Of a DNA stretch of 64,000 nt, positions 15,643 through 56,082 are shown piece after piece. Under the pieces are notes generated by a model. The model did no database searches and was not told the origin of the DNA. It saw nothing but the letters and a program-made list of their open reading frames with translations. The stretch lies in the IMG/VR virus record IMGVR_UViG_3300005512_000014. One strand, written 5' to 3'. The position numbers and the translations under genes are program-made. Within the stretch, counting starts at the first letter, position 1. Every line of letters begins with the position of its first letter. The stretch is from an uncultured virus (IMG/VR IMGVR_UViG_3300005512_000014) (Duplodnaviria; Heunggongvirae; Uroviricota; Caudoviricetes).

Positions 15643-15795
15643 TTATTCCTCCTCAGGTTTCTCTGTACCAACCTGTTGTTCTATCCATGTGTCCCATTCT
15701 TCGTGAGTCATGGGGCGAACGAGGTCATCGATCTGTACGTTGACTGAGCCTTCGGGGTAGAGGGCTTCTAGTTCTTCTCTAGTCCATGTGTTCAT
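15643..15795 (-). CDS. 50-aa fibre-associated protein, paralog of 18746..18940
   Basis: Read by hand: MNTWTREELEALYPEGSVNVQIDDLVRPMTHEEWDTWIEQQVGTEKPEEE; coupled to both neighbours. Confidence 0.8.
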   Translation of the reverse strand: MNTWTREELEALYPEGSVNVQIDDLVRPMTHEEWDTWIEQQVGTEKPEEE

Positions 15796-16394
15796 TGTGC
15801 GTACCCATAAACCCTGATAGTGCCACCTGTCATTGTCCCATTGTATGGGTACAACGTGAAAGAGGTATGGGATGTTGCATCTGCCTGAATTCCGACTGTG
15901 TTTCCGTACACTGACGAATACCGGATGATGGCATCCATTTCTGTCGAAGCAGAAAGATACGGACCCATTACGTTGAACCTCAAATTAGGAACTGAACCTC
16001 CTCCTGCGATAAAGTAACCAACATTATTTCCGTTGCCAGAAGTGGGACCAGCACCAGTGAAAGCATTTACCCAATTCAATGCCCAGTAGTACCCAGTTGT
16101 TGCTGAACCAACTCTGAAGAATATATCTACATCGTTTGAAAGAGTCCCACCATTCATTGTTATAAAGTAATTGTCGAACGTGGATGAAAACGCATTATTT
16201 ACCGTTACTGATGATACAGCAGTACCAATTGTCTGCGACTTGACCAGTACTAATCCCTGAGGATTACCGACAGACGTAATCGTCCCCGTAACTGTCACAT
16301 CATTATCGAATGTGACATTACCGGAAGCATCAATCGACCCTGCCTGAGTACCCAGACGGTTCTGCCAGTTATCAAAGCGAGCAGTAGAGGTCAT
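15792..16394 (-). CDS. Fibre tip/adhesin module, paralog of the C-terminus of 18937..19947
   Basis: GLVLVKSQTIGTAVSSVTV...GGTIRVYGY. Confidence 0.7.
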   Translation of the reverse strand: MTSTARFDNWQNRLGTQAGSIDASGNVTFDNDVTVTGTITSVGNPQGLVLVKSQTIGTAVSSVTVNNAFSSTFDNYFITMNGGTLSNDVDIFFRVGSATTGYYWALNWVNAFTGAGPTSGNGNNVGYFIAGGGSVPNLRFNVMGPYLSASTEMDAIIRYSSVYGNTVGIQADATSHTSFTLYPYNGTMTGGTIRVYGYAQ

Positions 16395-18746: not shown

Positions 18747-18940
18747 CAGTTACCCTCCGGCGGGTCAGGTAAATCTGCATCTGGCCAGTTCTGGTCTGCT
18801 GGCTTCTCCATGCCGACCTGCGAGTCAATCCATGCTGACCATTCGTCGGTCGTCATCGGGCGCACGTCGTCATCGACCTGCACGTTGACGGTGCCGTCAG
18901 GGTAGAGGGTCTCTAGTTCTTCTCTAGTCCATGTGTTCAT
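18746..18940 (-). CDS. 64-aa fibre-associated protein
   Basis: MNTWTREELE paralog of 15643..15795. Confidence 0.75.
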   Translation of the reverse strand: MNTWTREELETLYPDGTVNVQVDDDVRPMTTDEWSAWIDSQVGMEKPADQNWPDADLPDPPEGN

Positions 18941-19947
18941 TGCCCGTACCCGTAAATAAGTATTTTACCACCATTGAAGTTGCCAGCGACTGGGGCAAAA
19001 GTTATGGCCGAAAGGGATGTGTAGTTGTATACCCTTCCCCACATATTGTGGACTAGGTAAGTTGTCGATGTGGACATGCACTTGGTTTGCTGGTCGCTTC
19101 GGTAAGGGCCGAATATGTCCATAGTCATGGCTCCGCCATCGCCGGTTGAATTAGCGGTCGTAAACCCCATCTGTATGGAAGTTGTATCTACTGCCCCAAT
19201 GTAAGATGCACCTGTTGGCGGCGTGTACAAATTCATGTAATAGCCTGCATAGTTGTATACCGACCCGGTTTCTTGCGGGGAGTACCAGTGAACGGCAGTG
19301 TTGTTTGAAGAGTCTTGTAGCACCAAAACAATTCTGTAGTTGTCGTACGACGATGAAAAAGCATTAGTGACAGTTACCGAAGACACAGCATACCCAATAT
19401 CTTGGGATTTCACCAACACCATTCCAACAGGGTTACCTGCGACCCGTACATCACCTGTGGCATTGATGTCACCGTTGACATCCAACGTGTACGACGGCGT
19501 AGTATCACCGATACCGACATTGCCAGAAGTGTTGATCGTTACACGATCTATTCCGTTAGTGTTGAAATACTGATTTCCGTAAGTCCGCACTCTCAGCGGT
19601 TTTGACTGCCATGTTTCTATGTACCCTGTTGCTTCGCCTGTGTGATAACTAAGGCTAATTGCAGGTGTAGTCCCATCGGCATCTCTTGATACGGCAGTCA
19701 CCGAGCCGCTTACAGTGACTTTATCGTTAGGTGTCGTTGTACCTATACCCACACGCCCGTTTACAGAATCAATACTCAACACCTGATTATCGGCAACAAC
19801 AAGCCATGCAGCATTGTCATACACCAAAGTACGATTAGTGTCAGTCTCATAAATTAACTGACCCTCAAAGGGATTGACGGGGCGTGTTGAACTAGTGCAA
19901 ACACCAGACTTGTTGCCAAGCCTACCCAGCGCAGCATCAATACTCAC
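18937..19947 (-). CDS. Fibre protein
   Basis: GVCTSSTRP/EGQLIYETDT N-terminal module and VGIG repeats. Start placed at GTG 19947. Confidence 0.75.
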   Translation of the reverse strand: MSIDAALGRLGNKSGVCTSSTRPVNPFEGQLIYETDTNRTLVYDNAAWLVVADNQVLSIDSVNGRVGIGTTTPNDKVTVSGSVTAVSRDADGTTPAISLSYHTGEATGYIETWQSKPLRVRTYGNQYFNTNGIDRVTINTSGNVGIGDTTPSYTLDVNGDINATGDVRVAGNPVGMVLVKSQDIGYAVSSVTVTNAFSSSYDNYRIVLVLQDSSNNTAVHWYSPQETGSVYNYAGYYMNLYTPPTGASYIGAVDTTSIQMGFTTANSTGDGGAMTMDIFGPYRSDQQTKCMSTSTTYLVHNMWGRVYNYTSLSAITFAPVAGNFNGGKILIYGYGQ

Positions 19948-33954: not shown

Positions 33955-34343
33955 GACCTCGCAACAAGAGCAGTTGGGTTATCGTCGGAATCCATCGGAG
34001 TGAGGTTGTCATAGGTGCTGACAGTCAGCGTACCACGAACCACAACCGTCTCAGACAGGGGCGTCGATGTCAGCAACGCTGAACGGCTGACCGTAGCAAC
34101 TACGTCCCATAGATACTCTCCATCTTCAAGCCACTCGGTGTTGTTGGCGGTCATAGTAAGTAGCAACCCGCCCTCCGCTGTGATCTCAACAGGAAGGATG
34201 TAGATGGTATCACCGATCTTCACCGATGCATCAGCCTCGGTTGGAACCCGCTTCCTGCGCGTCCTACGATCCTTGGGGATAATCAGCCGCTCCCAAGGCT
34301 CACCGCGCATGACGGTGTAGTTCAGTTCGGTAATGCTAGACAC
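33951..34343 (-). CDS. Hypothetical beta-rich protein
   Basis: 130 aa; resembles 23178..23534 in layout (GEY.WDV...V.GT.TV). Confidence 0.5.
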   Translation of the reverse strand: MSSITELNYTVMRGEPWERLIIPKDRRTRRKRVPTEADASVKIGDTIYILPVEITAEGGLLLTMTANNTEWLEDGEYLWDVVATVSRSALLTSTPLSETVVVRGTLTVSTYDNLTPMDSDDNPTALVARS

Positions 34344-34588
34344 TTGCGCACCTCCGGGGATCAGGAGCGGACGTATATATTATTGCCGATAGGAACTACC
34401 TCGTGCAGGAGATCGGGGGGTCCTCCAAGAATCTTGGGGGGGGTATTGACAAGGCTGGTATAATGGATACTGATAGAAGGGAAGGGGGGTACCGACACCC
34501 CCATCTGGAAGCCGCGACGAGCGAAGCGAGTCGCTCCCGAAGGGCAGGCTCCCTACGGTCGCCTGTGATGGACACACAAGGAGTAACT

Positions 34589-34927
34589 ATGTCCGAAATT
34601 ACAAAGACAAGGGATGGCTACTACCTCCTCGGTGAGGGTCAGGGACCTAGCGAGGTTGCAGCAGCCGTTTACGGCAACGTCAATAAGTATGCTGAGATTT
34701 CCACCGTCAACTCTGATTTGGAATGGTTGCCGGGTACCCACATCCTCGTCCCTAACAAAGAGGGGCGCACCACAGTCGTTCAGGAGAACGAGACCACCTT
34801 TGAGGTCATCTCACGGATGTTCCCGAACCAGCCGGTACACCTGTACCTAGATCGGTTCTACATGTGGAACGACGGGTTCGACGCTGAAGACCTCGTCGGC
34901 GTTATGGTGTTCATCCCTGAGAGGTGA
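34589..34927 (+). CDS. Tandem LysM-like protein
   Basis: GP.EVA..VYG..KY.EI...N...PGT.ILVP, then a second similar repeat; RBS AAGGAG. Confidence 0.6.
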   Translation: MSEITKTRDGYYLLGEGQGPSEVAAAVYGNVNKYAEISTVNSDLEWLPGTHILVPNKEGRTTVVQENETTFEVISRMFPNQPVHLYLDRFYMWNDGFDAEDLVGVMVFIPER

Positions 34928-35207
34928 AGTCAGGGACGGTGTCGACAATCTTCATCTCCTTGACCATGGCTAATGGGATGTGGAGAAGACCGTCACAGCA
35001 CTCGTTGACATAACTTTGGATAATGGTGACGTGTCCGGGTTTGACGGATTCGTCCAGCATCACACCGACTGACACCACTAAGTAGGGGTCTGGGTCGATG
35101 TCGTCAACAACAGTCCAACTATAAGAACTACCGGCGTGAGCGTCTTCCCACAAGACGATGCATACAGGTAGTTCTTTTTCTTTGTTCTGTTTGCGGTGTC
35201 TCTTCAT
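34911..35207 (-). CDS. Hypothetical phage protein
   Basis: V.WEDA...SVG...IP..MV pattern. Confidence 0.6.
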   Translation of the reverse strand: MKRHRKQNKEKELPVCIVLWEDAHAGSSYSWTVVDDIDPDPYLVVSVGVMLDESVKPGHVTIIQSYVNECCDGLLHIPLAMVKEMKIVDTVPDFTSQG

Positions 35208-35230
35208 AGTTGTACATTAGTACAACTATG

Positions 35231-35293
35231 AGAAAAGGTGGCCCCGAAGGACCACCCTTTCCCTGCGCTTGGGCCAACCAACAAACCCAGCAC
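35231..35293 (-). ncRNA. Putative ~60-nt sRNA (seed hairpin plus terminator)
   Basis: Own TTGACA-17-TACAAT promoter; hairpin exposing UUUGUUGGUUGG; terminator GGUGGUCC-UUCG-GGGCCACC-UUUU; no ORF inside. Confidence 0.65.
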
Positions 35294-35298
35294 GATTT

Positions 35299-35327
35299 AT
35301 TGTAGCGACTCCGTTGGCGCTTGTCAA
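35299..35327 (-). promoter_or_regulatory. SigA/sigma70-type promoter
   Basis: TTGACA (35327-35322), 17 bp spacer, TACAAT (35304-35299). Confidence 0.8.
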
Positions 35328-35596
35328 CAGTTATCAGGATTATTTCTTTGACGAACCCTGCTGCGAACCCCCGCGCCTCCCCAGAAACCAAAGCGCTCCA
35401 TTTCACCGTATTCTCGGCACTGCTCTTGTACTGGGCATGTAGAGCAGATTTGCTTTGCGAGTTTTACCGTCTTAGTGTCGCCACGCTCGGGGAAGAAGAT
35501 GTTGGTGTCCATTCCCCTACAAGCCGCCTTCTTAATCCAGTCCCTTTCACGGTATTCACTGAGGAAAGAATCAAGAGTAAGCAGGTCGTCATCCAT
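35324..35596 (-). CDS. whiB: WhiB-family transcription factor
   Basis: W...AAC...FFP...AK.IC.TCPV..QC...GFWGG. Confidence 0.92.
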   Translation of the reverse strand: MDDDLLTLDSFLSEYRERDWIKKAACRGMDTNIFFPERGDTKTVKLAKQICSTCPVQEQCREYGEMERFGFWGGAGVRSRVRQRNNPDNC

Positions 35597-35628
35597 TGCC
35601 CTATTTTAGGGCAAAGGAACTGCTTTTG

Positions 35629-35883
35629 TCAACGACCGGAGATACGTGGATCAAGATCGTTGCCGTACTCGCCACTCATCTGAACGGGGGGCGCAGACTT
35701 CGCCATTGTTGCCATATAGTCCTGATCGCAGCAGTAACCGGTTCCGGTATGAAGGGGGTGCTCGCGCTGATCGTACTTACGCCCGCGCCCACCATACGCA
35801 ACCTGCTCGTAGCCGCCTCGCTTGCTCAATGGCTTTTTGTTCTGCATAACAGCCTCCGTAGTCGTGTGGGCTAACAGTACCAC
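35629..35883 (-). CDS. Hypothetical protein
   Basis: 84 aa ORF; real start may be ATG ~35847. Confidence 0.45.
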   Translation of the reverse strand: MVLLAHTTTEAVMQNKKPLSKRGGYEQVAYGGRGRKYDQREHPLHTGTGYCCDQDYMATMAKSAPPVQMSGEYGNDLDPRISGR

Positions 35884-35884
35884 A

Positions 35885-36307
35885 TCAATCGTCGTCTTCT
35901 TGAATAATCCTTAGTGGAGCATTCGTCCTAAATGCAACTGCCTGCCTGCCGCCTTCTTCAATGGGTCGATCCATCGATTCTAACGCTTCTTCCATACTCT
36001 CGTGACGAATGAACTCGTGTTCATACGGCTGGCGCTCGCCTTCTCCCAATCGGTATTTACGAGGCATTACTCTATGGACAGTGATCTCAGGGAGCCTTGC
36101 TTCACCAAACTCCACATCACGACCACGAATGTCGCGCATAGCGCGAGAGGCTTCATCGTGTGCTGCCATCCACGCCTCGTCAGGGTTAGTGCTTACGAGG
36201 CGAGTGGTACCACCCGGAACTTCTCTGTGGAAGCGTTCGGTGGTACCAAAGAAAAGGGGACCAAACCTTCCAAATTGGAATTCGTTTGTGCTATCGATTG
36301 CTGGCAT
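35885..36307 (-). CDS. Hypothetical protein, possible degenerate ADP-ribosyltransferase fold
   Basis: LFFGT...ST...A...TVHRV.P...PLRII, same layout as the 41-42 kb ART genes. Confidence 0.45.
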   Translation of the reverse strand: MPAIDSTNEFQFGRFGPLFFGTTERFHREVPGGTTRLVSTNPDEAWMAAHDEASRAMRDIRGRDVEFGEARLPEITVHRVMPRKYRLGEGERQPYEHEFIRHESMEEALESMDRPIEEGGRQAVAFRTNAPLRIIQEDDD

Positions 36308-36440
36308 GTTTATCAGTATAGTCCCACTCATCTACTTGTGGGCCTTCAAACTTCTTTGAAGGTATAGTTTGCGCCCGTAAGCGCTGTTCCATTGCTATGC
36401 GCTTTTCGTCGTCAGACCAGCGCTTACGGGCACGTTTCAT
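36291..36440 (-). CDS. 49-aa hypothetical protein
   Basis: Read by hand: MKRARKRWSDDEKRIAMEQRLRAQTIPSKKFEGPQVDEWD...; TGATG coupling to nrdJ. Confidence 0.55.
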   Translation of the reverse strand: MKRARKRWSDDEKRIAMEQRLRAQTIPSKKFEGPQVDEWDYTDKHASNR

Positions 36441-38368
36441 CACTTGATGGGGCAAGCGCCCCCGGCACATTCACCGAAGTCAACGTCTTCGGCTACGGCA
36501 GTCTGTACTAGTGGAACATCGAAGTTGATTTTGGCAAGCATCTTGTTGTAGGTGTCTTCGTCGCACTCCTCATAGGGGGCGAGTGGGAAGTTGTGATCTG
36601 AATGCAAGAGGAACGACACGGACTTGAGGCCCTTGTCGTAGTTCTTGCTTAGCCATTCCTTGATCTCGTCCAACTCCTCCATGCGGTAGTAGACGGTGAC
36701 AGAGACGGCGTTGTCGGCCCACTCAGTCTGCATACGCTTGACCCACTCCAACTGCTCTACAGCGGTCATGTCCTTGGCGAGTACAGAACCCTCAGGTGAC
36801 TGGCATGGGAACTCCACGACATAACTGGAGCGGTCTTCACGACCATCAAGCCCAACGTCGAACTGCACTCTGTAGCCACGCTTACGACAGGCGTCTACCA
36901 ACGGGTCTGACGACCGGAAACGAACACGACGGATGTAATGCTGCGCATAGGCAGGGTGAATACCGGGAGTCACACCGGGAAGGAGGGCGAGCGTCCCCGA
37001 GGGCTGAACAGTGGTCAAGCGAACGCTGACAGGGAATCCGTGCTCTTTGGAGTACTGCTCGTCAAGGTCGCTCAGGTACTCGTATGTAGGAGATAGCCAT
37101 GACAACTGTTCTGCGCTGCACTGAAGCATGCCAGTCACGCTCTGACCGAGACGAGCGTTCTTGTTGACGATCTTTGTGGTCTTCTCGTACGGGTACTCAA
37201 GACGAGTGATCTGCTTCTGCGTCAGGTACAGCAACCGGCTGATCTCCAGCATCTGCTCCTGCGACTCAATGTTCGGAAGAAAGATGGTGGCGAGGTTGCA
37301 GGACTCGCCGTCGCCAAGAGCGATCTCAGCGCAGGGGTTGTAACCCTCAATGCTGTTGTCAGCCTTGCGCTCACCCAGACGACCATACTGACGAGCCAAC
37401 TTACGATTCAGGAGACCGTACGGCTCACCGCTACCGTCGTAACCCTTCCACAGTTCGGGAAGAATCTCATCGTACGAGTCAGCGTAGATGCTGTTGTTAG
37501 AGTTGGATCGCCATGCCGGAATGGCACCACTGCTCCAGTTCTTCGCACGCAAGAACAAGATGTCGTCAGGGTCACCGATGGCGATCTGTGCGGAGCGACG
37601 GCTTGAGCCAGATACGACAACACGACCGATGATGTTGCAGATGTCCAGCACGTCGACAGAGCGCAACTTCTTACCGATACGCCCATCCATAACCTTGCAA
37701 ATGTCTTCAATACCATCAATAAGGGCAGAGGGGCCAGAGGCGGTGCCACCAAACGTCTTCAGCGGTGCGCCGTACTCGCGAATTAGAGCAGTGCTATAAG
37801 TGAACGACTTGCCGGTCTCAAAGTACGACTTCAGCACGCTGTGCAGGAGGCGGCTCCAGCCCTTGCGGCTGTCAGGCACGATGATGTCGGCATCGTGGGT
37901 CTTCTCGTGCGTGATCTCCACGCCAGCCTTGATCTTCGGTAACTCATGAATCTTGGCACGCTCTACGGAGAAGCCAACGCCCCCGCCGAGCATCAGGTGG
38001 TCGAACAGGAACTCAAAGTCTTCGACCTTCTCAATGTTGACGAAGTAGCAGTTGTTGAGTGATGCACCGTTCAACTGCTGGACAAGAGGCGTACCCAACT
38101 GCCAGAGCGCACGACCGCTCATAGAGCAACGCAGGTGGAACATGTGGTCGAACAACTTCTCGGCCTCTTCCTGCGTGTAGGGGGCACCGATTTCAATGGC
38201 ACCGTTGATCACGCGCTGGATGGTCTCAGGCCATGTCTCGTTCTCACCGTTGTCCTTTTTGCGGCTGTAGGTACGGAGAAACACCACCTCTCCCATGCCT
38301 CCAAAGCCCCACGGAGGAGTCAGTCCGCTGTAGAGAGATACAAATTCGTCAGAGATACGGGTCATCAC
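36440..38368 (-). CDS. nrdJ: Adenosylcobalamin-dependent (class II) ribonucleotide reductase
   Basis: RTYSR, LNNC, GGGVG, RRSAQI, NPCAEI, TVQPSGT, C-terminal CAGGACPIK. Confidence 0.93.
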   Translation of the reverse strand: MMTRISDEFVSLYSGLTPPWGFGGMGEVVFLRTYSRKKDNGENETWPETIQRVINGAIEIGAPYTQEEAEKLFDHMFHLRCSMSGRALWQLGTPLVQQLNGASLNNCYFVNIEKVEDFEFLFDHLMLGGGVGFSVERAKIHELPKIKAGVEITHEKTHDADIIVPDSRKGWSRLLHSVLKSYFETGKSFTYSTALIREYGAPLKTFGGTASGPSALIDGIEDICKVMDGRIGKKLRSVDVLDICNIIGRVVVSGSSRRSAQIAIGDPDDILFLRAKNWSSGAIPAWRSNSNNSIYADSYDEILPELWKGYDGSGEPYGLLNRKLARQYGRLGERKADNSIEGYNPCAEIALGDGESCNLATIFLPNIESQEQMLEISRLLYLTQKQITRLEYPYEKTTKIVNKNARLGQSVTGMLQCSAEQLSWLSPTYEYLSDLDEQYSKEHGFPVSVRLTTVQPSGTLALLPGVTPGIHPAYAQHYIRRVRFRSSDPLVDACRKRGYRVQFDVGLDGREDRSSYVVEFPCQSPEGSVLAKDMTAVEQLEWVKRMQTEWADNAVSVTVYYRMEELDEIKEWLSKNYDKGLKSVSFLLHSDHNFPLAPYEECDEDTYNKMLAKINFDVPLVQTAVAEDVDFGECAGGACPIK

Positions 38369-43836: not shown

Positions 43837-44185
43837 TGTGGATAAACCTGTGGATAAAGGGTGGGGGGGTGTGGATAACCTGTGGATAACTCACTTTTCC
43901 ACAGGTTCCTGTGGATAACTCGGTACTTTTCCACAGCCTGTGGATAACTTTTCCACAGACTTATCCACAACTAGCCTGTGGATAACTTTATCCACAGGGA
44001 GGCTATACATCCTGTGGATAACTCGGATTTTCTGTGGATAACCCATGCCTGAGACCCCGATTTCTGTGGATAACCCTGTGGATTTCCGTCTGCCCCCCGA
44101 AAATAGACAGGGTGGCACCACAGGGCGGGGCATCCAGAATTGCCCTGATTGCCCCCTATATGGCTGTCTGCCAGCCTGTGGATAA
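43837..44185. promoter_or_regulatory. DnaA-box cluster (oriC-like)
   Basis: 13 perfect TTATCCACA/TGTGGATAA at 43837, 43849, 43870, 43881, 43910, 43939, 43961, 43977, 43988, 44013, 44033, 44065, 44177. Three TTTTCCACA at 43895, 43927, 43949. Confidence 0.9.
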
Positions 44186-44251
44186 CTTCGACGTGGGGGT
44201 CTATGCATAGTTATTCACCCCGATGAATAGATATACAGGTAGGTACAATTA

Positions 44252-44318: not shown

Positions 44319-45101
44319 CTATCACTCGCCTGTACGTACGTGCGCGTGCGCGTGCATATGCGCCCATACGCCCGCGTAGCGCGTGTTCCTATGCATCTCC
44401 TTGGGAAATGTCCGTACAATACATTACGATTATTACATCGAATGTTACGATTGTTACAAGGTTGGGGGCGCTGCTACCTTGGTCAATGTCCGAGTGACGG
44501 CGACGGCAACAACGGTCGCCACGGTGCGTGTTCAACGGTGCCACACTCGTGTCGTCATGGTGCCCCATGTGGGGCAGCGGTGCAGCGCAGGCCATCCTGT
44601 GGGTGCGCATCGCTCCGTGACGACTTGTACGCCCCATCGGGTCGGGTTCACCGCCGACCGTGACACGATGACGTGGAACTAGGGCAATCGTTGAATCGTT
44701 CCCCCAATTGGGGGGCGCGACACCACGACCCATCGTGGGCAGGCCGTGCCTGCCCAGTGGCGGTCAATGGTCATGTCATAGCGGGATGCGCCTGCGCGAC
44801 CGTGACCAACCGCAGTGTTCTCTGTACTCGCACAATGACCGGATGTAGCCCACGACCGGCGTGCTCTGTCGCGTCCCCATCGCGGGGGGGCGACGTTGTG
44901 AGAATCGTGAGCGTCTAGTCCCTAGCACCCGGCACCCCTACGTGGGTGCCGGAGGCACCACGACACCGAACCAGTGCATCGTGGTGATGCGCCCCTGCAA
45001 GGGGGCGCGCCCACTGCTCCCCTATGGGGGGTAGTGGGGGCATCCCCTTGCCCATCAACTGTGCCCCATGTGGGGCACACGACCGGAAACGGAGACAACC
45101 A

Positions 45102-45752: not shown

Positions 45753-45794
45753 CTAGTGACCCTGCCCCACGTGGGGCAGGGTTCACCATCGACA

Positions 45795-45821
45795 CGACCT
45801 GAGCATGTCGTAAAACTGCTC
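45795..45821 (+). ncRNA. Putative H-type pseudoknot, copy 1
   Basis: CGAC-CT-GAGCA-T-GTCG-TAAAAC-TGCTC. Confidence 0.55.
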
Positions 45822-45912
45822 CGGCCAGTAACCGTCAGGTCGTACCTAATTTGTGGATTGACGGAGTTTGCGGAATTGTTTGTGCCGAGCACCCGCAGGC
45901 GCATATCGGTAC

Positions 45913-45940
45913 CGACCTGAGCATGTCGTAAAACTGCTCA
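45913..45940 (+). ncRNA. Putative H-type pseudoknot, copy 2
   Basis: Same 27-mer as copy 1. Confidence 0.55.
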
Positions 45941-46037
45941 CCCCCCCACGGTAGAGCCTGACAAGCATCTCCCACCTCTACCACTCCACCAACCAACCAA
46001 CCGTGCCCCACGTGGGGCACTGAGAGGAACCAACACA

Positions 46038-46448
46038 ATGAACATGCAACTCAACCCTGAGACCGGCGAGTACACACCAGTCATCCGACTGGGTCACCCC
46101 GAACTGTTCGACGCCATCACTGGCGCAGGTGCCCTAGACCACTATCCATGGTACGTGAGCCACAAGTTCATGCTCACCGCGCATGACGACGACGGCTACG
46201 GCAGCGGTAACCGATGCGTCGTCATTATGGACACCGGCGACACGACCCCAGCGGGCGCGCAGTTGCTGGCACGCAAGGTGCTGTCTCCCAACCGCTTGCG
46301 CAAGGTCGTCGTCCAGATGATTCTGGACGACCATCCTGCCGTCACATCCATCGACTGGGCTGACCCATACTGCGACGCGGACATCGACGCAAATATCGCA
46401 GACTGCATCATTCAGACCTGCATCCTTGGCACGGTGGTGTTCGGGTGA
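46038..46448 (+). CDS. Hypothetical protein
   Basis: RBS GAGG; C-terminal DA.IAD.IIQ..ILG.VVFG. Confidence 0.75.
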   Translation: MNMQLNPETGEYTPVIRLGHPELFDAITGAGALDHYPWYVSHKFMLTAHDDDGYGSGNRCVVIMDTGDTTPAGAQLLARKVLSPNRLRKVVVQMILDDHPAVTSIDWADPYCDADIDANIADCIIQTCILGTVVFG

Positions 46449-46569
46449 CATTCACCATCGTCAACGCCATCGCCCAGTTCACTTTCATCACCACCGCCGT
46501 CGTCCTGACGGCGGTGGTGTTGCGCCGTTATCCCGACTGATGCCCCACGTGGGGCAGATAGGAACAACC

Positions 46570-46836
46570 ATGACAATCAAAAACCTCATCCCCACCGCCC
46601 TCGCAAAGGGCAAAGCGTACGCCTCCAACAAGAAGTGGAGTGCAGTGCGTACAGACAACGGCAAGGTCGTCGTGTACCACTACACCACGGCCATGCTGTG
46701 GGTTCTGCCCGATGGCACCCCCGAACCCATCTCGCGGGGCTACGGCTCCATGTCCGACAAGCAAGGCGTGCGCGAAGTGCTCGCCGGTATCGGTATCGAC
46801 ATGTCCTACAACGACTTCTACAAGGAGACACGATGA
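46570..46836 (+). CDS. Hypothetical protein
   Basis: MTIKNLIPT...; starts just after a palindrome and RBS. Confidence 0.7.
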   Translation: MTIKNLIPTALAKGKAYASNKKWSAVRTDNGKVVVYHYTTAMLWVLPDGTPEPISRGYGSMSDKQGVREVLAGIGIDMSYNDFYKETR

Positions 46837-47072
46837 GCGGAGTACACCGTAATACCGTAATCCCCACCGACGCGGGCACTATCGAAGTGTCATCAGTTCG
46901 GGGCAGGGTCGGTTTGGCACACATAAATGAAACATGTGTGTTCCTGCCCCCAATACTGGCAACCCTCCACGGTTGCCAGTCAGAAGTAGTCGGCACCTAC
47001 GACGACCATGCCCGCGTGGTCGATGCCATCCGCCTACTCAACGCAATCATCGTGCCCCACGTGGGGCACTGA
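46833..47072 (+). CDS. Hypothetical protein
   Basis: ATGA coupling; RBS AAGGAG. Confidence 0.6.
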   Translation: MSGVHRNTVIPTDAGTIEVSSVRGRVGLAHINETCVFLPPILATLHGCQSEVVGTYDDHARVVDAIRLLNAIIVPHVGH

Positions 47073-47086
47073 GAGGAGACACCACA

Positions 47087-47737
47087 ATGTCATTACCTAG
47101 CAAAAAGCAGACGAGGTTCATTCAGACCCTCGTAGAAGACCGCCAGCAGGCTCTCGCCGGTGAGTACGCTCACCTGCTCCAGCACCCTGTCAACACTCTG
47201 CAAGAGGCCAGTGCTCTGATCGAAGCCCTGCTCAAGGTGGAGGTCGACCCCCGCGTGGTCGACCCTGCCGAACAGGCGCGCATCGGCGCGCTGGTGGACA
47301 ACATGCCCAACCTGTCCCCCGACGACCGTGACTTCGCCCAGTCACTGGCTACCCAGTTCAACGCAAAGGGGCGACTCAGTGACCGGCAGTGGCTCTTTGT
47401 CGACCAACTGGCCATCAAGACGGAGGCCACTTGCGACCCCCAAGAGGGGGACATCGTGTGGGCACACGGTAACTACTACATCGTGCGGTTGAGTAAGCAC
47501 GGTCGCCCCTACGCCAGCGTTCTTAGAGGGCGTAACTGGGAGTATGCACCACGCCATATGCCCCTCGTACGGAGTGGTCGGATTGTGACCGGCGACGAAC
47601 TCGCTGCATTCGCAAAGGAGTACGGTGACAGTTGGCACCGTTGTATCTTCTGCGCGCTGCCACTCAACGACGAACGGTCAGTCAGCGCAGGATACGGTGA
47701 AGTCTGCGCTGGTAATAATGGCCTACCGTGGGGCTGA
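47087..47737 (+). CDS. DUF6011-like Zn-finger protein
   Basis: C-terminal CIFC..PL.D.RS...GYG.VCA; internal LS.RQW. Confidence 0.75.
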   Translation: MSLPSKKQTRFIQTLVEDRQQALAGEYAHLLQHPVNTLQEASALIEALLKVEVDPRVVDPAEQARIGALVDNMPNLSPDDRDFAQSLATQFNAKGRLSDRQWLFVDQLAIKTEATCDPQEGDIVWAHGNYYIVRLSKHGRPYASVLRGRNWEYAPRHMPLVRSGRIVTGDELAAFAKEYGDSWHRCIFCALPLNDERSVSAGYGEVCAGNNGLPWG

Positions 47738-47769
47738 TGCCCCACGTGGGGCACTGAAAGGAGACAACC

Positions 47770-47892
47770 ATGTATGACGAGAACGGATGGTGGCGACCCA
47801 TCGACGGCTGGGAAGCACAACTCCAATACGGCATACTCGCCGTATGCCTCATCGCACTCATAGCCCTCATTACCTACCGAAAGGACACCTGA
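47770..47892 (+). CDS. 40-aa membrane peptide
   Basis: Read by hand: MYDENGWWRP...GILAVCLIALIALITYRKDT; RBS AAGGAG; TGATG coupling. Confidence 0.6.
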   Translation: MYDENGWWRPIDGWEAQLQYGILAVCLIALIALITYRKDT

Positions 47893-49352
47893 TGACGACC
47901 CTTGCCGACATGCTGAGTGGCGTAACCACGCCACCTGCCCCACGTGGGACATTCACCATCGACGCGCCTGCACCCGACCTGCAACTACCGCTGTACGACT
48001 TCCAGAGCGAGGCATTGGACTTCATTGTCCAACGCCGTCGTGCATATATCGCATACGATATGGGTCTGGGTAAGACCCCCATTGGTATCGCTACCGCATC
48101 GCGTATCGCTGCCAACGGTGGCAAGACTCTGATCGTCGTACCCTCGTCACTGCGCACCAACTGGAAGCGCGAGATCACTAAGTTCGCGCCCCACCTCACC
48201 GTTGAGGTACTGGTCGGCAAGACCCCCCACGCGCTACCCGACGTGGACGTGTACGTCATCGGTGAGGCCGTGCTGCAATACTGGCAGATGCCCCTCGTGG
48301 GGCACGTGCAAGCAGTGATCGCTGACGAGGCGCACTTCTATAAGAACAAGAACGCAAAGCGCACCAAAGCATTGCAGGCCATATCAGCCTCAGTGACCGG
48401 CGTGGTCGTGCTTATGTCTGGCACGCCTATCCCTAATGGTCGTCACGAAGAACTCGCACCCCAGATCGACGTGCTGGGTAGCGAGGCATGGGACGGAATC
48501 GGTGGCAAGGGCAAGTTCTGGAACACGTACTGCCCGCCAGACGAATCTGGCTACGGTCGCCAGTCCTGCGACAACGTGGGACTCAACAAGGCCATGACCA
48601 CATCGTTCATGCTGCGCCGACGGCGCGACGAGGTGATCGAACTGCCCAACAAGGGTCGTTCCGTCATCAGCATCGAATCCGACGCTGGCAGTGCACGCAC
48701 CTATCGGCGCATGGAGGCCGACTTCATCGCATGGCTCGCGGAGAACGACGGCAACGTGGCTGGTGCCATGCGTGCCGAAGCACTGATGAAGATGAACGCA
48801 CTGCGCAAGCAGTCCGGCACATGCAAGATCAAGGGCACCGTCGATCACGTCAAGAACATTCTGGACAACGACACGACCGGCGTGTTCATCGTCGCAGAGC
48901 ACCGCGATGTGATGACCCAGTTATACCTTGCTTTGCAGTCATATAACCCTGTATCAGTCGCCGGTGGTATGTCCGACGCTGAGAAGCAGCACGCCATCGA
49001 CTCGTTCACATCCGGTCAGTCGCGTGTTCTCATCGGTCAGATCAAGGCTGCTGGCACCGGACTGACTCTGCACGGTGGTGGACTCAACCGACGTGTCGTC
49101 GTAGCCCAACTGCCGTGGTCGCCATCTGACCTAGTGCAGGCCGAAGACAGGCTGCACCGCATCGGCCAGACCGCCGACGTGGAGGTAGAGATCGCACTGT
49201 CGCATATCGAAAACGAATGGACTATTGACGAACGTCTGTGGTCGCAGTTGGAGATCAAAGCATTCAGCAGTGCATCGACCGTTGACGGCAACGGTCAGTA
49301 TCTCATCGGAGATGACTCCATCTCAGGTGGAGTGCTGGACACGTACAGGTGA
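47892..49352 (+). CDS. SNF2/HARP-like SF2 helicase
   Basis: DMGLGKT, DEAH, SGTP, GTGLTL, QAEDRLHRIGQ. Confidence 0.92.
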   Translation: MTTLADMLSGVTTPPAPRGTFTIDAPAPDLQLPLYDFQSEALDFIVQRRRAYIAYDMGLGKTPIGIATASRIAANGGKTLIVVPSSLRTNWKREITKFAPHLTVEVLVGKTPHALPDVDVYVIGEAVLQYWQMPLVGHVQAVIADEAHFYKNKNAKRTKALQAISASVTGVVVLMSGTPIPNGRHEELAPQIDVLGSEAWDGIGGKGKFWNTYCPPDESGYGRQSCDNVGLNKAMTTSFMLRRRRDEVIELPNKGRSVISIESDAGSARTYRRMEADFIAWLAENDGNVAGAMRAEALMKMNALRKQSGTCKIKGTVDHVKNILDNDTTGVFIVAEHRDVMTQLYLALQSYNPVSVAGGMSDAEKQHAIDSFTSGQSRVLIGQIKAAGTGLTLHGGGLNRRVVVAQLPWSPSDLVQAEDRLHRIGQTADVEVEIALSHIENEWTIDERLWSQLEIKAFSSASTVDGNGQYLIGDDSISGGVLDTYR

Positions 49353-49377
49353 TGCCCCACGTGGGGCACTAAGGGAG

Positions 49378-49406
49378 TTGACAATGTCTTGAGTAACTGA
49401 TAAAAC
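49378..49406 (+). promoter_or_regulatory. Putative SigA promoter
   Basis: TTGACA-17-TAAAAC, 9 bp after palindrome 49353. Confidence 0.5.
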
Positions 49407-49450
49407 CTTGTATACCCAACCAACAAACCAACACAGAAAGAACAACCAAC

Positions 49451-49864
49451 ATGGAAACAACCACCATCAACGGCGTTGACTACGTCAAGAAAGCAGACGT
49501 AGACAACGTCACCTACAGACTTTCAACGAGGTACCAATCCCTCCATCGACTCGCGTCAAGCCTTGTCGAAGAACTCATCACAAACAAGGTGCAAGACGAC
49601 TACAGCGCGCTGACCGACATGATCTACACGTGGGAAGAACACGAGATCAACGTGACCGGTCGACGCGAGTGGAACGTCACCGCCACTGTCACGTTCGACG
49701 TGGAGTTGACCGTCACCGCTGCCAGCGAAGACGAGGCATCAGAAACCGCTGACACCTATCTGGAAAACAGCGTCCACGTGGAGCAGTTATACAGCGACGA
49801 TGACGTTGAGTTCGATTCGTCTTCTCACTCAAGCACTGACGATATCGACGTTCAAGAATCCTGA
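49451..49864 (+). CDS. Acidic hypothetical protein
   Basis: 137 aa; V.AASEDEA.E.A motif. Confidence 0.75.
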   Translation: METTTINGVDYVKKADVDNVTYRLSTRYQSLHRLASSLVEELITNKVQDDYSALTDMIYTWEEHEINVTGRREWNVTATVTFDVELTVTAASEDEASETADTYLENSVHVEQLYSDDDVEFDSSSHSSTDDIDVQES

Positions 49865-49932
49865 CACACAGGGGGCACCTCATTCGGGGTGCCCCCTGCC
49901 CCACGTGGGGCAATCGACCAAGAAAGAGAACA

Positions 49933-51525
49933 ATGTACACAACCATCGACCCATCAGAGCACCCCGACATCCATCGGGGCTATATCAACATCGGTGATGA
50001 GCAAGTGACCGTCACGATCAGCCATGAAGGCATCATCATCGACCTGTACGACGACAAGCACGGCGAGCACGTTGGCACCGTCGCCAGCGCGTTCGATGAG
50101 ATCGCTGAGATCATAACGAGACTCGCCAACCGAGAGAGAGAACAACTGACATGAGCAAAGAAACAATCACCATCGACCTTGCTGACGACCGCGACCTGCG
50201 GGTCATCCTGCACAACGCTCTGCATGCGCATCACGACACGCTCAACAACCGCCGTCGGCAACTCATGCAAGCACTGGAGGACTTGCAGCGAAGCCAGCCA
50301 GACCACCGCGATATACCAATGCTGCGTGAGTCTCACGCCGATGCTGCGGAGCAGTACGAGAGAATGTACGACCTGCTCATCGCTGCTGACCACGGCAGTA
50401 TCGTTATCTCATATGAGGACTATCCAGAGGTATGAGCACCAACATTCATATCGACATAGAAGTTGAGGGGTCGGTTGTGTTCTACGACATGACCGGCGAC
50501 TCCGAAGCAGTGACACGTATCCTGCTCAACCAGTTCGGTGCGACCATATGGTATCGAAAGAATGGTGCCGTATGGTCGTACTACGGCACAGTCATGCAGG
50601 ACTGCCTGCGTGTGCTGCGCGAGACAGACTCTCTTGGCAAACTCTCTTGGCATATCAAGAGGACTGCTAAGAAAGCGACAAACATCACCAACACGCCCCA
50701 CGTGGGGCACTAAAAGGAGAACAACTGACATGAAGTATCAAATCACCGTGCTGGATGAGGTCTACACACACAAGATTGTGGAAGCCGACAGTCCAGAGGC
50801 CATTGAAGATGGCAACTACGAGGTCATCGAAGAGTTTCCCGGAAACGCGGGCGAGTGCGATCAGATCATCACCATTGACGAGATGGAGGACAACTGACCA
50901 TGGATATCAACATCACACGAGTGGCGGTGGAAGCAGAGGTGTCCTGCGACCACTGTGGCAACACTCACTTCATGTCCGTCGATGACGGCGACACCTATTT
51001 CAGCGAGAGCCAGATGGAAGACGCTGTGACCGAGCGACTCAGCGACGAGGGGTGGGAGGACGACCTCTGCCCCGACTGCGTGTTCGAGCGAGATCATCCC
51101 GAGGAGGACAACTGACATGAGTTCATACGACAACTGGAAGACCACCGACCCTGCCCTTGAGAATGAGTGGGACTGGATTCTCGCCTGCGAGGAATACGAG
51201 GAATCACCTGAGTATCAACAAGACCTCGCTGAGTGGCTCAATGCCGTGCGCGAGGCCGACCCCACAGGAGAGTACGACGAGAGCGACTACCAGATCAGCG
51301 ATTGCTACAACAACGCCGTGGAAGACGTGATGAAAGAACAGGAGTACTGATATGAAGCGATATCGACAGACAATGACCATCACGTTTGACGTGTGTGCAG
51401 ACGACGAGCGCGAAGCCACGCGCCTCATCCAAGAGTGCTACGAAGACATGGACACCGTCGACTGGTGGACACCTGACACCACCGTCATCGTCGCAGACAG
51501 CGAATACTTTGACCCCATCAACTGA
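49933..51525 (+). CDS. Run of seven small, mostly acidic hypothetical genes (49933-50154, 50151-50435, 50432-50713, 50730-50897, 50900-51115, 51117-51350, 51352-51525)
   Basis: Tightly coupled ORFs with RBSs; several junctions read ACAACTGAC(C)ATG. Confidence 0.7.
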
Positions 51526-51561
51526 TAGCAAAGTGCCCCACGTGGGGCACTTCTATACGAT

Positions 51562-51590
51562 TTGACAACCTATCAACCACCAAGTAAAGT
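51562..51590 (+). promoter_or_regulatory. SigA promoter for the AAA+/vWA operon
   Basis: TTGACA-17-TAAAGT, 12 bp after palindrome 51534. Confidence 0.72.
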
Positions 51591-51625
51591 ACCCATACCA
51601 ACCAACGACTAAGGAGACAACCAAC

Positions 51626-52948
51626 ATGAAAGCCAAAGACCTGCGCGCCGACATCCCAGTCGTCGTAACATCTGGTCCGTACGAGGGCATGACCGTCACG
51701 GTCAAGAACGCCACTGTTCAGCCCGACGGCACCCCCAACCAGCGCAAGGTGCTGGTGACCATTCCCAGCATCGGACCGAACGGTGCCGATGTCGATGAGT
51801 ACATGCTGCCACGCATGCTAGAGATTCCGCGTGACACGTTCACTCTGCGTTCACCATCGACACCGCCCACACCGGCTCCGCTGCCTGCGCCTGTTCCTGC
51901 CTACGCCAGTTCCAACGCTGAACTTACTGTCATCGAACACGGTGTCGTACAGCACGCAGTCGACATCACCGACCCGATGGACGAGTCACTGGACGAGTTC
52001 CGTCCCGACCCCAACATCGTCAACGAGTACGTTTCTCGTACACTCCCCGGTGGATTGACTGACGTGGAGTACATGCTGGCACTACGTGACCAGCGTGATA
52101 GCCGTGGGTATTCGCCCAACGTAGCACTCGTTGGTGAGACGCAATCTGGCAAGACCATGCTCGTCAGGGTGCTTGCCGTGCTCGCTGCGCAACGTGATGG
52201 GCTTCCAAAGCCCTATCCGGTCTTCACCCTCAACGGTTCTATGGGTATCACCGACTATGAAATGTTCGGTCAGACCTCTGCCGTCATCGAAAACGGTCGT
52301 GAGATGCTCGTCTGGATGGACGGCCTCGTACCTCGCGCACTGAAGTGCGCTGCGATTCTGTACTGTGACGAGTGGAATGCAGTACCGCCCCAGCAAGCGG
52401 TCGCTCTACACCCCATCCTTGACGACCGGCGTGAGTTCACCAACTACCGCCGTGCCGTTCCCGATGGTCACGGTGGGTACCGCCCCGAAGTTGTGCCGGT
52501 GAACCCCAACACGTGGATTATCAGCACCATCAATCCCGGTTACAAGGGGACACAAACCATGGCCGAAGCCAGCACCAACAGGTTCCGCTGGATGCCTTGG
52601 GATTACGATGCCAAGGTGGAGGCTGCTCTCATCCCATCTGAGACCGTGCGCCTCATGGGTCAGGCTCTACGCACCGCTCGCGCAGAGCGCGCCTTGACCG
52701 TGCCCATCGGTACCTCTGCACTTCAGCGGTTCAATGCCGACTGTGCGACCTTTGGTGTCGACAACGCTCTGTGGGTATTCACCGGAATGTTTCCACCCAA
52801 CGAGCGCGACCGTGCCAACACCATCATCGAAGACCGTGGGTTCCTCAACATCTTGCGTGCTGAGTACCCCAACCCAACCTATGCCCCACGTGGGGCAGAC
52901 GACACCGTCAATGATTCAGCAGATCGTTCGTCGGACGCCCCATTCTGA
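51626..52948 (+). CDS. MoxR/CbbQ/CobS-like AAA+ ATPase
   Basis: GETQSGKT, YCDEWN, TINPGY.G...A..NRF. Confidence 0.88.
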   Translation: MKAKDLRADIPVVVTSGPYEGMTVTVKNATVQPDGTPNQRKVLVTIPSIGPNGADVDEYMLPRMLEIPRDTFTLRSPSTPPTPAPLPAPVPAYASSNAELTVIEHGVVQHAVDITDPMDESLDEFRPDPNIVNEYVSRTLPGGLTDVEYMLALRDQRDSRGYSPNVALVGETQSGKTMLVRVLAVLAAQRDGLPKPYPVFTLNGSMGITDYEMFGQTSAVIENGREMLVWMDGLVPRALKCAAILYCDEWNAVPPQQAVALHPILDDRREFTNYRRAVPDGHGGYRPEVVPVNPNTWIISTINPGYKGTQTMAEASTNRFRWMPWDYDAKVEAALIPSETVRLMGQALRTARAERALTVPIGTSALQRFNADCATFGVDNALWVFTGMFPPNERDRANTIIEDRGFLNILRAEYPNPTYAPRGADDTVNDSADRSSDAPF

Positions 52949-52962
52949 TAAGGAGGAATATC

Positions 52963-55038
52963 ATGGCAAAGAAAAAGACAGTACCAAAGCATCTCAAACC
53001 ACAGCGTGGTCTGGGTCAAGAGATTACGAGGGCACGACGTAGCCAGCGTGACATCTTGCGTAAGCGCGAAGAGAACGACCGGATGACGGCAGCAACCAAC
53101 GCACGAGCAGAGATTGAGCGTCTGCGCTCTGCGAACTGTGTCGTTGACCAGTTTTACAAGTGGGCTAACAGCCTCGTCGGTGCAACCGTCGACAGCCAGA
53201 CCGCTGTACTGCGTTCAATGGGTATGAAGCAGGAGGTCTCCTACGAGGTAGGTGTATGGAGTAGTAGCCGTGTAACCGCATGGACGGACTTCTCACGCAT
53301 CTTTCTGTCGTACCCTCGCAACATGGTACCGTCACGCGACTCTCATCGCAGTGCCATCGTTGACACAATCATCGACATACGTGGCCTCATGCAGCATGAG
53401 ATGGGTCACCTGCGCTTCACGGTGCCGTTCAAGACATTGGTTGATCACGACGCTGAGAGCAGCCAGCCTCGCATCCCCGGCATGTACTTGTTTGGAACCG
53501 TCAAGAACGTATGGAACATGCTGGAAGACCAGCGCATGGAAACACTGGTCGTCAGGGATGTGCCCCACATTCGCGATTACTTCACCAAGATGATCTACCG
53601 ACACATCATCAATACGCAGCACAGCACCAACCCATACTGGCCGTGGCTGCTTGTCGCAGGACGCCAGTATCTGCCACGTGATATGCGCCAGTCATGTCGT
53701 GACATGTTCTCTGACGCACTGCCCCACATCGACAGCCAAGAGTGGTTCGACATCGTCGCGAGGTACAAGACCGCTACAACCTACGACACGATGATCGATG
53801 CCATTCTTGAGGCTACTGCTTGGTACAGTCAGATAAATAATGATTCATTTGAGCACCCAACTGAGCATCGTGACCCCCCTACCAACTACGGCGGTCAGAA
53901 GCAGGAGAGCGACGAGAGTGCCGGGGGCGACCCTTCCGATGCTTGCGAGCCTGAGCAGGACGACACCAAGGGGCGTAATCCTAGTAGCGACGACACTGGC
54001 GACGACACTGACAGTGGTACCGGTGACGACATTGGCGACGACACTGGCAGTGGTAACGGTGACGAGCAGAGCGACGACACCGACGATTCCACTGGCGGTG
54101 ATGGTTCTGGTCAGGCAGATGGCAAGTCGCCGGATGACAGCCCAGACAGCGGTGGCAAAAGTGCTGGCGAAGGCGACGGCACCACTACGAATCGTCGTGA
54201 CTTTACTGAAAGTCTGCGTGATGCCGTCAATGACATCAACGACGACCTTGGCAGCAGTCACGAGATCACAGAAACCATCTCCGACGCCAACTGGCGTGCT
54301 GACAGGGAGGGTCTCCCCAGCAAGAACGGTAGTGGTAGCCCGATGCAACTGGACTACGTCGATGAGGCCCTACGTGCCAGCATTGGTATCCAACAAGCAT
54401 TGACTGAGTGCGTGACCACTACGCAACCGGCATGGTTGTCACATCAAGATTCGGGTGCCATTGATGCCCTTTCATACCGTACGAAGCAGGTAGGTGCTCT
54501 TGATTATCACCGCCGTTTGGACGGCGACTTCACATCAGGTCTGGACATTCACGTGTCCATGCTGTGCGACGTGTCGGGTTCCATGGGTTCTAGTTCTACC
54601 GACAGTGGCCGTACCGACATCGAAGAATTGAGTATCGCTATGTACGCCATTCACGATGCCTGCAATGCTCTGGGTATCGGTTCCACGTACGTGCTGTGGT
54701 CTAGCAACGCCAATGCCCATCGTGTGTGGGATTGTGGTTCAGTCGAACCTATGACGTGGTCTGCATCGGGGGGTACTAACCCAGTCATGGCTCTTGACGA
54801 CTTGACCTTCCACAACGAGGAGGGCGCGAGTAAGCACCTCGTCATAGTGTTCACTGACGGTGTGTGGAACAACAACATACCGTCCCTCAGTCGGTGGAGC
54901 ACAGACGACCGTCACATCATTCTCGTTACCCTTGGTTCTTCCCTAAACCAAGACAGGGGTGCCGATGCCAGCGTCGTCGTCAAATCATGCAACGAACTGC
55001 CTAACCAACTGGCTATTGCACTCAAGAGCCTCATCTGA
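52963..55038 (+). CDS. CobT-like protein: HExxH domain, acidic linker, vWA domain
   Basis: HEMGH...N.LED.R.E; D/G-rich linker; MIDAS DVSGSM...GGT...TDG. Confidence 0.85.
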   Translation: MAKKKTVPKHLKPQRGLGQEITRARRSQRDILRKREENDRMTAATNARAEIERLRSANCVVDQFYKWANSLVGATVDSQTAVLRSMGMKQEVSYEVGVWSSSRVTAWTDFSRIFLSYPRNMVPSRDSHRSAIVDTIIDIRGLMQHEMGHLRFTVPFKTLVDHDAESSQPRIPGMYLFGTVKNVWNMLEDQRMETLVVRDVPHIRDYFTKMIYRHIINTQHSTNPYWPWLLVAGRQYLPRDMRQSCRDMFSDALPHIDSQEWFDIVARYKTATTYDTMIDAILEATAWYSQINNDSFEHPTEHRDPPTNYGGQKQESDESAGGDPSDACEPEQDDTKGRNPSSDDTGDDTDSGTGDDIGDDTGSGNGDEQSDDTDDSTGGDGSGQADGKSPDDSPDSGGKSAGEGDGTTTNRRDFTESLRDAVNDINDDLGSSHEITETISDANWRADREGLPSKNGSGSPMQLDYVDEALRASIGIQQALTECVTTTQPAWLSHQDSGAIDALSYRTKQVGALDYHRRLDGDFTSGLDIHVSMLCDVSGSMGSSSTDSGRTDIEELSIAMYAIHDACNALGIGSTYVLWSSNANAHRVWDCGSVEPMTWSASGGTNPVMALDDLTFHNEEGASKHLVIVFTDGVWNNNIPSLSRWSTDDRHIILVTLGSSLNQDRGADASVVVKSCNELPNQLAIALKSLI

Positions 55039-55079
55039 TACAACCGAGTGCCCCACGTGGGGCAAGAGAGGAGACACGT

Positions 55080-56054: not shown

Positions 56055-56082
56055 CCACCTGAGCATGTGGCAAAACTGCTCA
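56055..56082 (+). ncRNA. Putative H-type pseudoknot, copy 3 (compensatory change)
   Basis: CCAC-CT-GAGCA-T-GTGG-CAAAAC-TGCTCA. Confidence 0.55.

Follow-up and report, generated by a model that had tools for sequence, protein, structure and literature searches.

To our knowledge, the small RNAs so far described from phages come almost all from phages of enterobacteria and from those of few other hosts. Small RNAs of the DapZ and MicL type, which are enterobacterial and Hfq-dependent, derive from 3'-UTRs and are transcribed from an internal promoter. In phage lambda, the PR'-tR' arrangement of a constitutive promoter and a terminator upstream of the late genes is the precedent for late control, and both OOP of lambda and sar of P22 are encoded opposite their target. 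The accessible part of a 2025 review presents the latter two as terminated phage RNAs of ~70 nt acting as antisense repressors of a phage regulator, with OOP tabulated as cis- and sar as trans-acting (PMC12197685). The same part covers the 77-nt c4 RNA of P1/P7 (immI), the complementary sequences of which are thought to be located in loops and which acts in trans on a phage mRNA leader, pairing around the ribosome-binding site of ant mRNA (PMC12197685). No actinobacterial-phage small RNA is listed in this part of the review, and the terms 'actinobacteri' and 'mycobacteriophage' occur 0 times in the text of the review (PMC12197685). As to the short PR' transcript of lambda and Stx phages (6S RNA, StxS), the available part of a further publication indicates that it can itself be regulatory (PMC7547250).

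The window analysed here, i.e., the whole stretch of 64,000 nt from an uncultured member of the Caudoviricetes (IMG/VR IMGVR_UViG_3300005512_000014), harbours a short promoter-hairpin-terminator unit (termed cassette in the following) on the minus strand, in a 116-nt gap separating the two minus-strand genes whiB and g98 (Table 1). The whiB product belongs to the WhiB family (61.2 bits against Pfam PF02467 at a cut-off of 23.6; E = 1.4e-16), and its presence points to an actinobacterial host. Since the whiB promoter ends 6 nt before the ATG, this gene is probably leaderless. The minus-strand late block headed by g98 extends over ~35 kb and includes the genes for the terminase large subunit (32718-31162) and the portal protein (27734-26031). 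Among 10 records, the terminase of Streptomyces phage BRock ranked best, at 45 % identity, and IMG/VR contains 495 terminase relatives. DNA similarity to cultured phages was detected neither for positions 34000-37000 (megablast) nor for 34900-35650 (blastn), and g98 yielded no match in a protein search of cultured phages and no relatives as a query against IMG/VR.

The conserved gene g111 is encoded in opposite orientation within the late block, with a perfect extended -10 and an AAGGAG ribosome site; 17 nt of it overlap with the 3' end of g98. Its orientation is the same in the relatives holding this region (38 locus matches), while neither a Pfam family nor a cultured-phage match in the protein search was found for its product. 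If made, a g111 transcript would cross g98 in antisense direction and approach the terminator hairpin of the cassette. In relatives, a tRNA gene is present between g98 and g111 (L004 3634-3706, L016 3643-3715, L024 3521-3593); ARAGORN and Rfam each found 0 tRNAs in the window.

Table 1. Coordinates of the cassette, its neighbouring genes and the complementary sites in the window
Feature	Position	Strand	Remarks
-35 hexamer TTGACA of the cassette promoter P_x	35322..35327	-	includes whiB stop codon TGA
-10 hexamer TACAAT of P_x, spacer 17	35299..35304	-	predicted start G35293/T35292
5' hairpin GUGCUGGGUU[UGUUGGUU]GGCCCaAGCGC	35265..35293	-	predicted fold
G/U-rich motif GGUUUGUUGGUUGG (CCAACCAACAAACC on + strand)	35274..35287	-	carried by the 5' hairpin
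Intrinsic terminator GGGUGGUCC-UUCG-GGGCCACC (35257-35237), then UUUUCUC (35236-35230)	35230..35257	-	predicted fold
TAATGT, -10-like element (P_late)	35214..35219	-	putative leaderless late promoter, 6 nt 5' of the g98 start codon
Perfect 12-bp inverted repeat TCATAGTTGTAC/GTACAACTATGA	35204..35231		spans P_late and the g98 ATG
whiB-family gene, 90 aa	35324..35596	-	PF02467; promoter TTGACA-18-TAAAAT 35632-35603
g98, first gene of the long late block	34911..35207	-	start codon ATG at 35207
g111, conserved, 112 aa, converging on g98	34589..34927	+	extended -10 TGGTATAAT at 34456-34464
Exact 14-nt complement CCAACCAACAAACC	49416..49429	+	predicted 5' end of the mRNA from TTGACA-17-TAAAAC (49378-49406)
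13/14 complement	45989..46002	+	36-49 nt before ATG 46038
CCAACCAACGA in the leader of the AAA_5 gene (ATG 51626)	51598..51608	+	promoter TTGACA-17-TAAAGT 51562-51590

An initial annotation had described the cassette as a near-consensus TTGACA-17-TACAAT promoter driving a unit of ~60 nt that ends in a UUCG terminator, and both elements are indeed present. The promoter (35327-35299, minus strand) matches the consensus at 11/12 positions; between 30001 and 50000 only one further site attains this score, namely the one driving whiB, and intergenic TTGACA-17/18-TAnnn[TC] sites occur only four times in the window (at 35327, 35632, 49378 and 51562). The predicted P_x transcript, beginning at G35293/T35292 and ending in the U-tract at 35236-35230, is ~62-65 nt long and would close with a 15-bp UUCG-loop terminator hairpin, the stem of which is extended by an upstream A-tract. 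For the 68-nt cassette RNA, the minimum free energy amounts to -40.9 kcal/mol (z = -6.4), and 0/200 shuffles fold as well. A hairpin exposing the complementary seed had also been proposed. The hairpin is recovered at 35293-35265, but only 8/14 seed bases (UGUUGGUU) reside in its loop according to the predicted fold, whereas the outer seed bases, GGUU 5' and GG 3' of the loop, form base pairs, some of them G.U.

Judged by consensus match and predicted fold, the cassette has its own promoter and an intrinsic terminator around a short non-coding stretch, as is characteristic of an independent sRNA gene, and an RNA of ~63 nt is likely to be made from P_x. Features of a 3'-UTR-type sRNA are equally present: the promoter overlaps the end of whiB, with the stop codon held by the -35, and the terminator is shared, no other terminator being found between whiB and position 35257. 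The previous designation as a stand-alone sRNA is appropriate with regard to own promoter, own terminator and distinctness from a g98 leader, but not in the strict sense, because the -35 overlaps the whiB stop codon and the whiB mRNA shares the terminator. Rfam 15 yielded 0 hits at or above gathering score across the whole window; in E-value mode, four sub-threshold hits were obtained for 35150-35400, the best of them (STnc320, 20 bits vs a cut-off of 50) covering the terminator only. In the relatives, Rfam retrieved tRNAs only. By these searches, the cassette RNA belongs to no described RNA family.

Related loci were collected by terminase, whiB, motif and middle-gene searches, and only those containing both whiB and g98 were used for comparing the gap between the two genes. 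Among the 8 distinct gap versions, 5 bear a cassette (the window; L001/G005; L004/L013/L016; L014; L020/L024/L144), with a terminator hairpin following 40-130 nt after a promoter-like site on our reading of these gaps, while neither promoter nor terminator is present in the other 3 (L006, L011, L028). Given its presence in 5 gap types and absence in 3, the cassette is, as far as these gaps tell, an accessory unit that comes and goes. A strict consensus tool confirmed only the promoter of L001 (10/12) and the terminator of L024. The promoters of L004 (TTGACG-18-TAACCT), L014 (extended -10 TGTGATATAAT) and L024 (extended -10 TGATATACT) were recognised by eye and fail the strict hexamer rule.

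The inner cassette sequences are unrelated between the types, except for those of the window and the L004 type. The latter is represented by 3 sequence variants on 5 IMG/VR contigs and can be aligned with the window sequence at both hexamers of the cassette promoter, at the terminator and at the late -10, overall identity being ~60 % as judged by eye. The longest invariant block shared by the window and the L004-type cassettes is the 14-nt GTTTGTTGGTTGGC, a comparison of two independent lineages only. In L004, GTTTGTTGGTTGGC is again located in the 5' hairpin, the stem of which is formed from different bases and alignment columns; there, the motif is predicted to pair with itself via G.U, with a 5-nt loop left. 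In the two lineages that share it, the G/U motif appears to be the best conserved part of the cassette. This homologous cassette was seen only by reading the gaps; a blastn search with the element in the first 83 loci returned nothing at E <= 0.01. The exact 25-nt hairpin pattern had 0 matches in IMG/VR. A gapped motif pattern matched 8 loci there, 3 of which (G006-G008) are chance matches within coding sequence, and 60 stretches in 185,579 species genomes, 0 of them with the terminator signature of the cassette.

Further peculiarities were observed around the cassette site. In L004, the cassette -35 is located within a hairpin CCGTCAA-nnn-TTGACGG (3204-3220, minus strand); read on the opposite strand, this hairpin precedes a T-run and is scored as a terminator that may serve the converging transcript of g111. 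In the close relative L139 (16.4-kb metagenome contig; RNR 94.5 % identical in protein and 88 % in DNA), three unrelated genes replace g148 and whiB, indicating mosaicism beside the cassette site; the first early leader of this contig reads TTCAACCAACAACGCCTGAGGAGG.

Directly upstream of g98, a TANNNT hexamer is located 5-7 nt before the start codon in 8/8 gap types (TAATGT, TAATCT, TAAAGT, TAACCT, TAAAAT, TAGAAT, TAGATT and TAAGAT), its columns aligning between window and L004, and a Shine-Dalgarno sequence is absent in 8/8. Leaderless genes and TANNNT promoters are frequent in actinobacteria. On the basis of this spacing and of the missing Shine-Dalgarno sequence, the g98 mRNA is probably leaderless and transcribed from its own -10-only promoter. 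As g98 seems to have its own -10, the promoter-hairpin-terminator unit would not simply constitute the g98 leader. Both leaderless-looking genes, whiB and g98, display a 12-bp inverted repeat centred on the -10 (35592-35618 and 35204-35231, respectively), with the start codon in the right arm. The AUG would be buried in this repeat in a read-through RNA, while the left arm is missing from the leaderless RNA.

The sequence observations made before on the possible partners of the RNA were likewise all confirmed. The exact 14-nt complement at 49416-49429 begins 10 nt after the -10 of the 49378 promoter, i.e., just past the predicted start, and 22-35 nt before the ATG at 49451. Of the two near matches, the 13/14 site at 45989-46002 is separated from its ATG by a palindrome hairpin, and no good promoter was found upstream of it; for CCAACCAACGA at 51598-51608, the distance from the -10 of TTGACA-17-TAAAGT is 8 nt. 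Both this site and the one at 49416 coincide with the predicted 5' ends of their mRNAs. The respective start codons follow the ends of the three sites by 22, 36 and 18 nt (in the order 49416, 45989, 51598); all three are upstream of the Shine-Dalgarno sequences, and none covers the ribosome-binding site. The candidate targets are 10.7-16.3 kb away from the cassette, and 5/5 motif copies reside on the plus strand. Used as queries against IMG/VR, the 137-aa protein encoded at 49451 had no relatives and the SNF2 helicase retrieved 1 distant locus.

Whether the complementarity exceeds chance depends on the null chosen. The seed pattern with up to 2 mismatches has 3 matches compared to 0.49 expected, a count reached by 1/100 shuffles. 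When only leaders were considered (45 nt upstream of 90 heuristically called genes), those of the genes at 49451, 51626 and 46038 ranked 1, 2 and 3, and 0/400 composition-preserving seed shuffles reached the best score of -24.3 kcal/mol; for the three named leaders alone, 0/2000 shuffles reached the best and 1/2000 the summed score. These p-values are optimistic, because it was from the same data that the idea of testing leaders as a class arose. The number of leaders at -17 kcal/mol or below was matched by 94/400 shuffles, and the multi-target count is thus not significant. In a 14-mer duplex scan of the whole window on both strands, the site at 49411 was best (-24.3 kcal/mol), and 1/40 composition-preserving shuffles beat this value. 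Cofolding of the 33-nt hairpin with 6378 windows ranked the 49401 window first (-17.8), whereas 4/4 seed-shuffled hairpins cofolded at -18.0 to -30.2. A duplex scan with the whole 29-nt hairpin was dominated by GC-rich coding sites and was uninformative. Exact repeat pairs of at least 14 nt number 170 in the window, 55 of them outside a palindrome family of 11 copies, as compared to ~15 under a uniform expectation, and 154/2030 segments of 63 nt contain a 14-mer recurring elsewhere in the window. Among the leaders, only the 49416 site stands out, so that the case for the proposed co-regulation of several early operons is weak.

A/C-rich leaders are a general feature of the clade: 14/19 distinct 40-mers preceding the AAA+ gene of relatives have an A+C content of at least 0.65, compared to 7.5 % of background 40-mers. 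In the 68-kb relative G005, the leaders begin with CCCAUACCAA, and its early region contains no CCAACCAACAAAC at up to 2 mismatches; the G005 cassette RNA has no G/U motif, and its longest complement elsewhere is 10 nt and outside the leaders. None of the 5 contigs bearing the homologous cassette extends into the early region, and no contig was found to carry an L004-type cassette together with early leaders (G001-G003, L125/L121/L126, AAA+ loci and 24 metagenome loci). Matches no more frequent than expected in A/C-rich leaders had been named as evidence against an antisense function. In this regard, the leaders-only result (0/400) speaks for the match, while the equally good performance of shuffled seeds across the window and the clade-wide A/C-richness speak against it. 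Overall, the earlier interpretation is partly supported, with trans-antisense control of early leaders as a reasonable candidate function.

Several other repeats were noted in the window. The palindrome TGCCCCACGTGGGGCA (core CCCCACGTGGGG) occurs in 11 copies in the plus-strand early block (45765-55051); all copies read in context are intergenic and several are positioned a few bases before the next Shine-Dalgarno sequence. The variant GTGCCCCATGTGGGGCA is present at 44560 and 45061, and relatives have GTGACAnnnGTCAC palindromes in the same kind of place. The TGCCCCACGTGGGGCA palindromes recall the conserved inverted repeats of phage phiC31 and could represent an operator family or intercistronic RNA hairpins. 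A cluster of direct repeats CCTGTGGATAAC(T), resembling DnaA boxes (TGTGGATAA), occupies the gap between the minus- and plus-strand blocks (43879-44190) and recurs in relatives (L096 3690-4080, L125 16440-16460); it probably represents a replication origin or control region. Upstream of the first early gene, the 27-nt sequence CGACCTGAGCATGTCGTAAAACTGCTC, including a TAAAAC -10-like hexamer, is directly repeated (45795-45821 and 45913-45939), with AAAACTGCTCACCCC recurring at 56072. The longest repeat of the window is a 31-nt exact direct repeat, TCTAGTTCTTCTCTAGTCCATGTGTTCATTG, in the late block (15767-15797 and 18912-18942).

Tentatively, the locus may be viewed as an accessory cassette located at the 3' end of the phage whiB gene, serving as small-RNA gene and insulator and endowed with a regulatory G/U hairpin. 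A host sigma-A-type promoter overlapping the whiB stop would start the ~63-nt RNA, composed of the 5' hairpin with the G/U-rich motif and the strong UUCG terminator. The whiB mRNA would end at the same terminator, so that the hairpin doubles as whiB 3' UTR, and the terminator would shield the late operon, the putative leaderless -10-only promoter of g98 being located ~10 nt beyond. With the conserved G/U motif taken as the working part, the RNA would pair antisense with early mRNAs at their A/C-rich extreme 5' ends, primarily with the mRNA from the 49378 promoter. Such 5'-end pairing would alter stability or processing rather than directly block the ribosome site. Taken by itself, trans pairing of the cassette RNA with early leaders is rather unlikely, with the 5' end of the 49378-promoter mRNA as the only concrete target lead. 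More doubtful still is a generalised version, in which the gap between whiB and the late promoter would be a hot spot for small-RNA gene swapping, and the RNAs of the window and L004 lineages would pair via their G/U hairpins with A/C-rich 5' ends of early mRNAs driven by host polymerase, regulating the phage's own early programme in an actinobacterial host.

According to another, not very probable account, the cassette is solely an insulator: the terminator would stop whiB/early as well as g111 transcription before the late promoter, the RNA would be a by-product and the 14-mer match a chance event. Shuffled seeds finding equal or better sites across the window and the 55 unrelated exact repeat pairs of at least 14 nt agree with this account, as do the unrelated inner sequences of the cassette types and the G005 RNA, which is hardly more than a terminator hairpin. 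However, a pure terminator needs no promoter, yet on our reading all terminator-bearing types (5/5) have a promoter-like site upstream; furthermore, the loop motif and not the terminator is the longest invariant block, and in the leader-restricted test 0/400 shuffles attained the best score.

Conservation of the motif and its display on a hairpin in two lineages, together with the equivocal evidence for early-leader pairing, would also accord with a regulatory RNA having another partner, i.e., a G/U hairpin binding a protein or host mRNAs instead of phage early leaders. This is improbable, as no candidate partner was found and the leader match is the only specific signal.

The position of the cassette, a strong promoter and a terminator immediately following a regulator gene and immediately preceding a ~35-kb late block, is the one to be expected if P_x were a constitutive late promoter of the lambda PR'-tR' kind, halted at the terminator until a phage antiterminator acts, with the RNA as a by-product similar to 6S/StxS. 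Such a function is nevertheless quite improbable, considering that in 8/8 gap types a private -10 precedes g98 at leaderless distance, that promoter and terminator are absent in 3/8, and that the g98 AUG in a read-through RNA would be enclosed in a 12-bp hairpin devoid of a Shine-Dalgarno sequence. Moreover, the gene upstream encodes a WhiB protein (PF02467) rather than a Q-type antiterminator, and we know of no antiterminator function of WhiB.

As the motif follows the -10 of P_x and of the 49378 and 51562 promoters by 7-25 nt, and all of its copies (5/5) are on the plus strand, CCAACCAAC(A/C)AAC might alternatively be a double-stranded protein site at approximately +3 to +18 in several early promoters, P_x among them, so that the apparent complementarity would reflect one operator in opposite orientation. 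This DNA operator is very doubtful: a binding protein was not identified, the copies in the three leaders show 1-4 differences over 14 positions, and stem-forming bases flank the motif in two lineages, which a DNA site would not need. Finally, a leaderless micro-ORF or attenuator, the translation of which would melt the terminator and couple into g98, is hardly credible and was rejected, for although a GUG coinciding with the predicted start of the P_x transcript and spaced 5 nt from the -10, a leaderless-style distance near that of whiB and g98 (6 nt), opens a 29-codon frame (35204-35293, minus strand) that passes through the terminator and overlaps the g98 AUG with its terminal UGA (AUGA), an open frame of this length is ~25 % likely by chance and is not conserved in the L004-type cassettes, which lack ATG/GTG at the predicted start and the frame of which stops 24 nt before g98.

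Returning to the small-RNA and insulator cassette, an RNA that is real and acts on early leaders would mean that a large family of uncultured aquatic phages controls timing by means of RNA and would, if true, provide a function for the conserved A/C-rich leaders. Independent of such pairing, the comparison suggests where late transcription starts, namely at a leaderless -10-only promoter beside a phage WhiB, and reveals a promoter-terminator cassette that comes and goes at the whiB-g98 spot.

Compared to the described systems, c4 RNA, a short phage RNA acting in trans on a phage leader, is closest to the action proposed for the cassette RNA. It differs from the cassette RNA in that the sites of the latter are upstream of the Shine-Dalgarno sequence at the mRNA 5' end and the host is of the actinobacterium type, and the two have no sequence or Rfam relation. 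In contrast to OOP and sar, the candidate targets of the cassette are 10.7-16.3 kb distant. The PR' transcript resembles the cassette RNA in being made from a strong promoter with an immediate terminator just upstream of late genes, whereas the late operon here seems to own a leaderless promoter, WhiB instead of Q is encoded upstream, and 3/8 relatives are without the unit. With DapZ and MicL, the cassette has in common a promoter overlapping the upstream ORF at its end and a terminator shared with the parent mRNA, though it resides in a phage of a presumably WhiB-using host. The architecture most akin to that of the cassette is shown by the lambda/Stx PR' short transcript and by 3'-UTR sRNAs having internal promoters.
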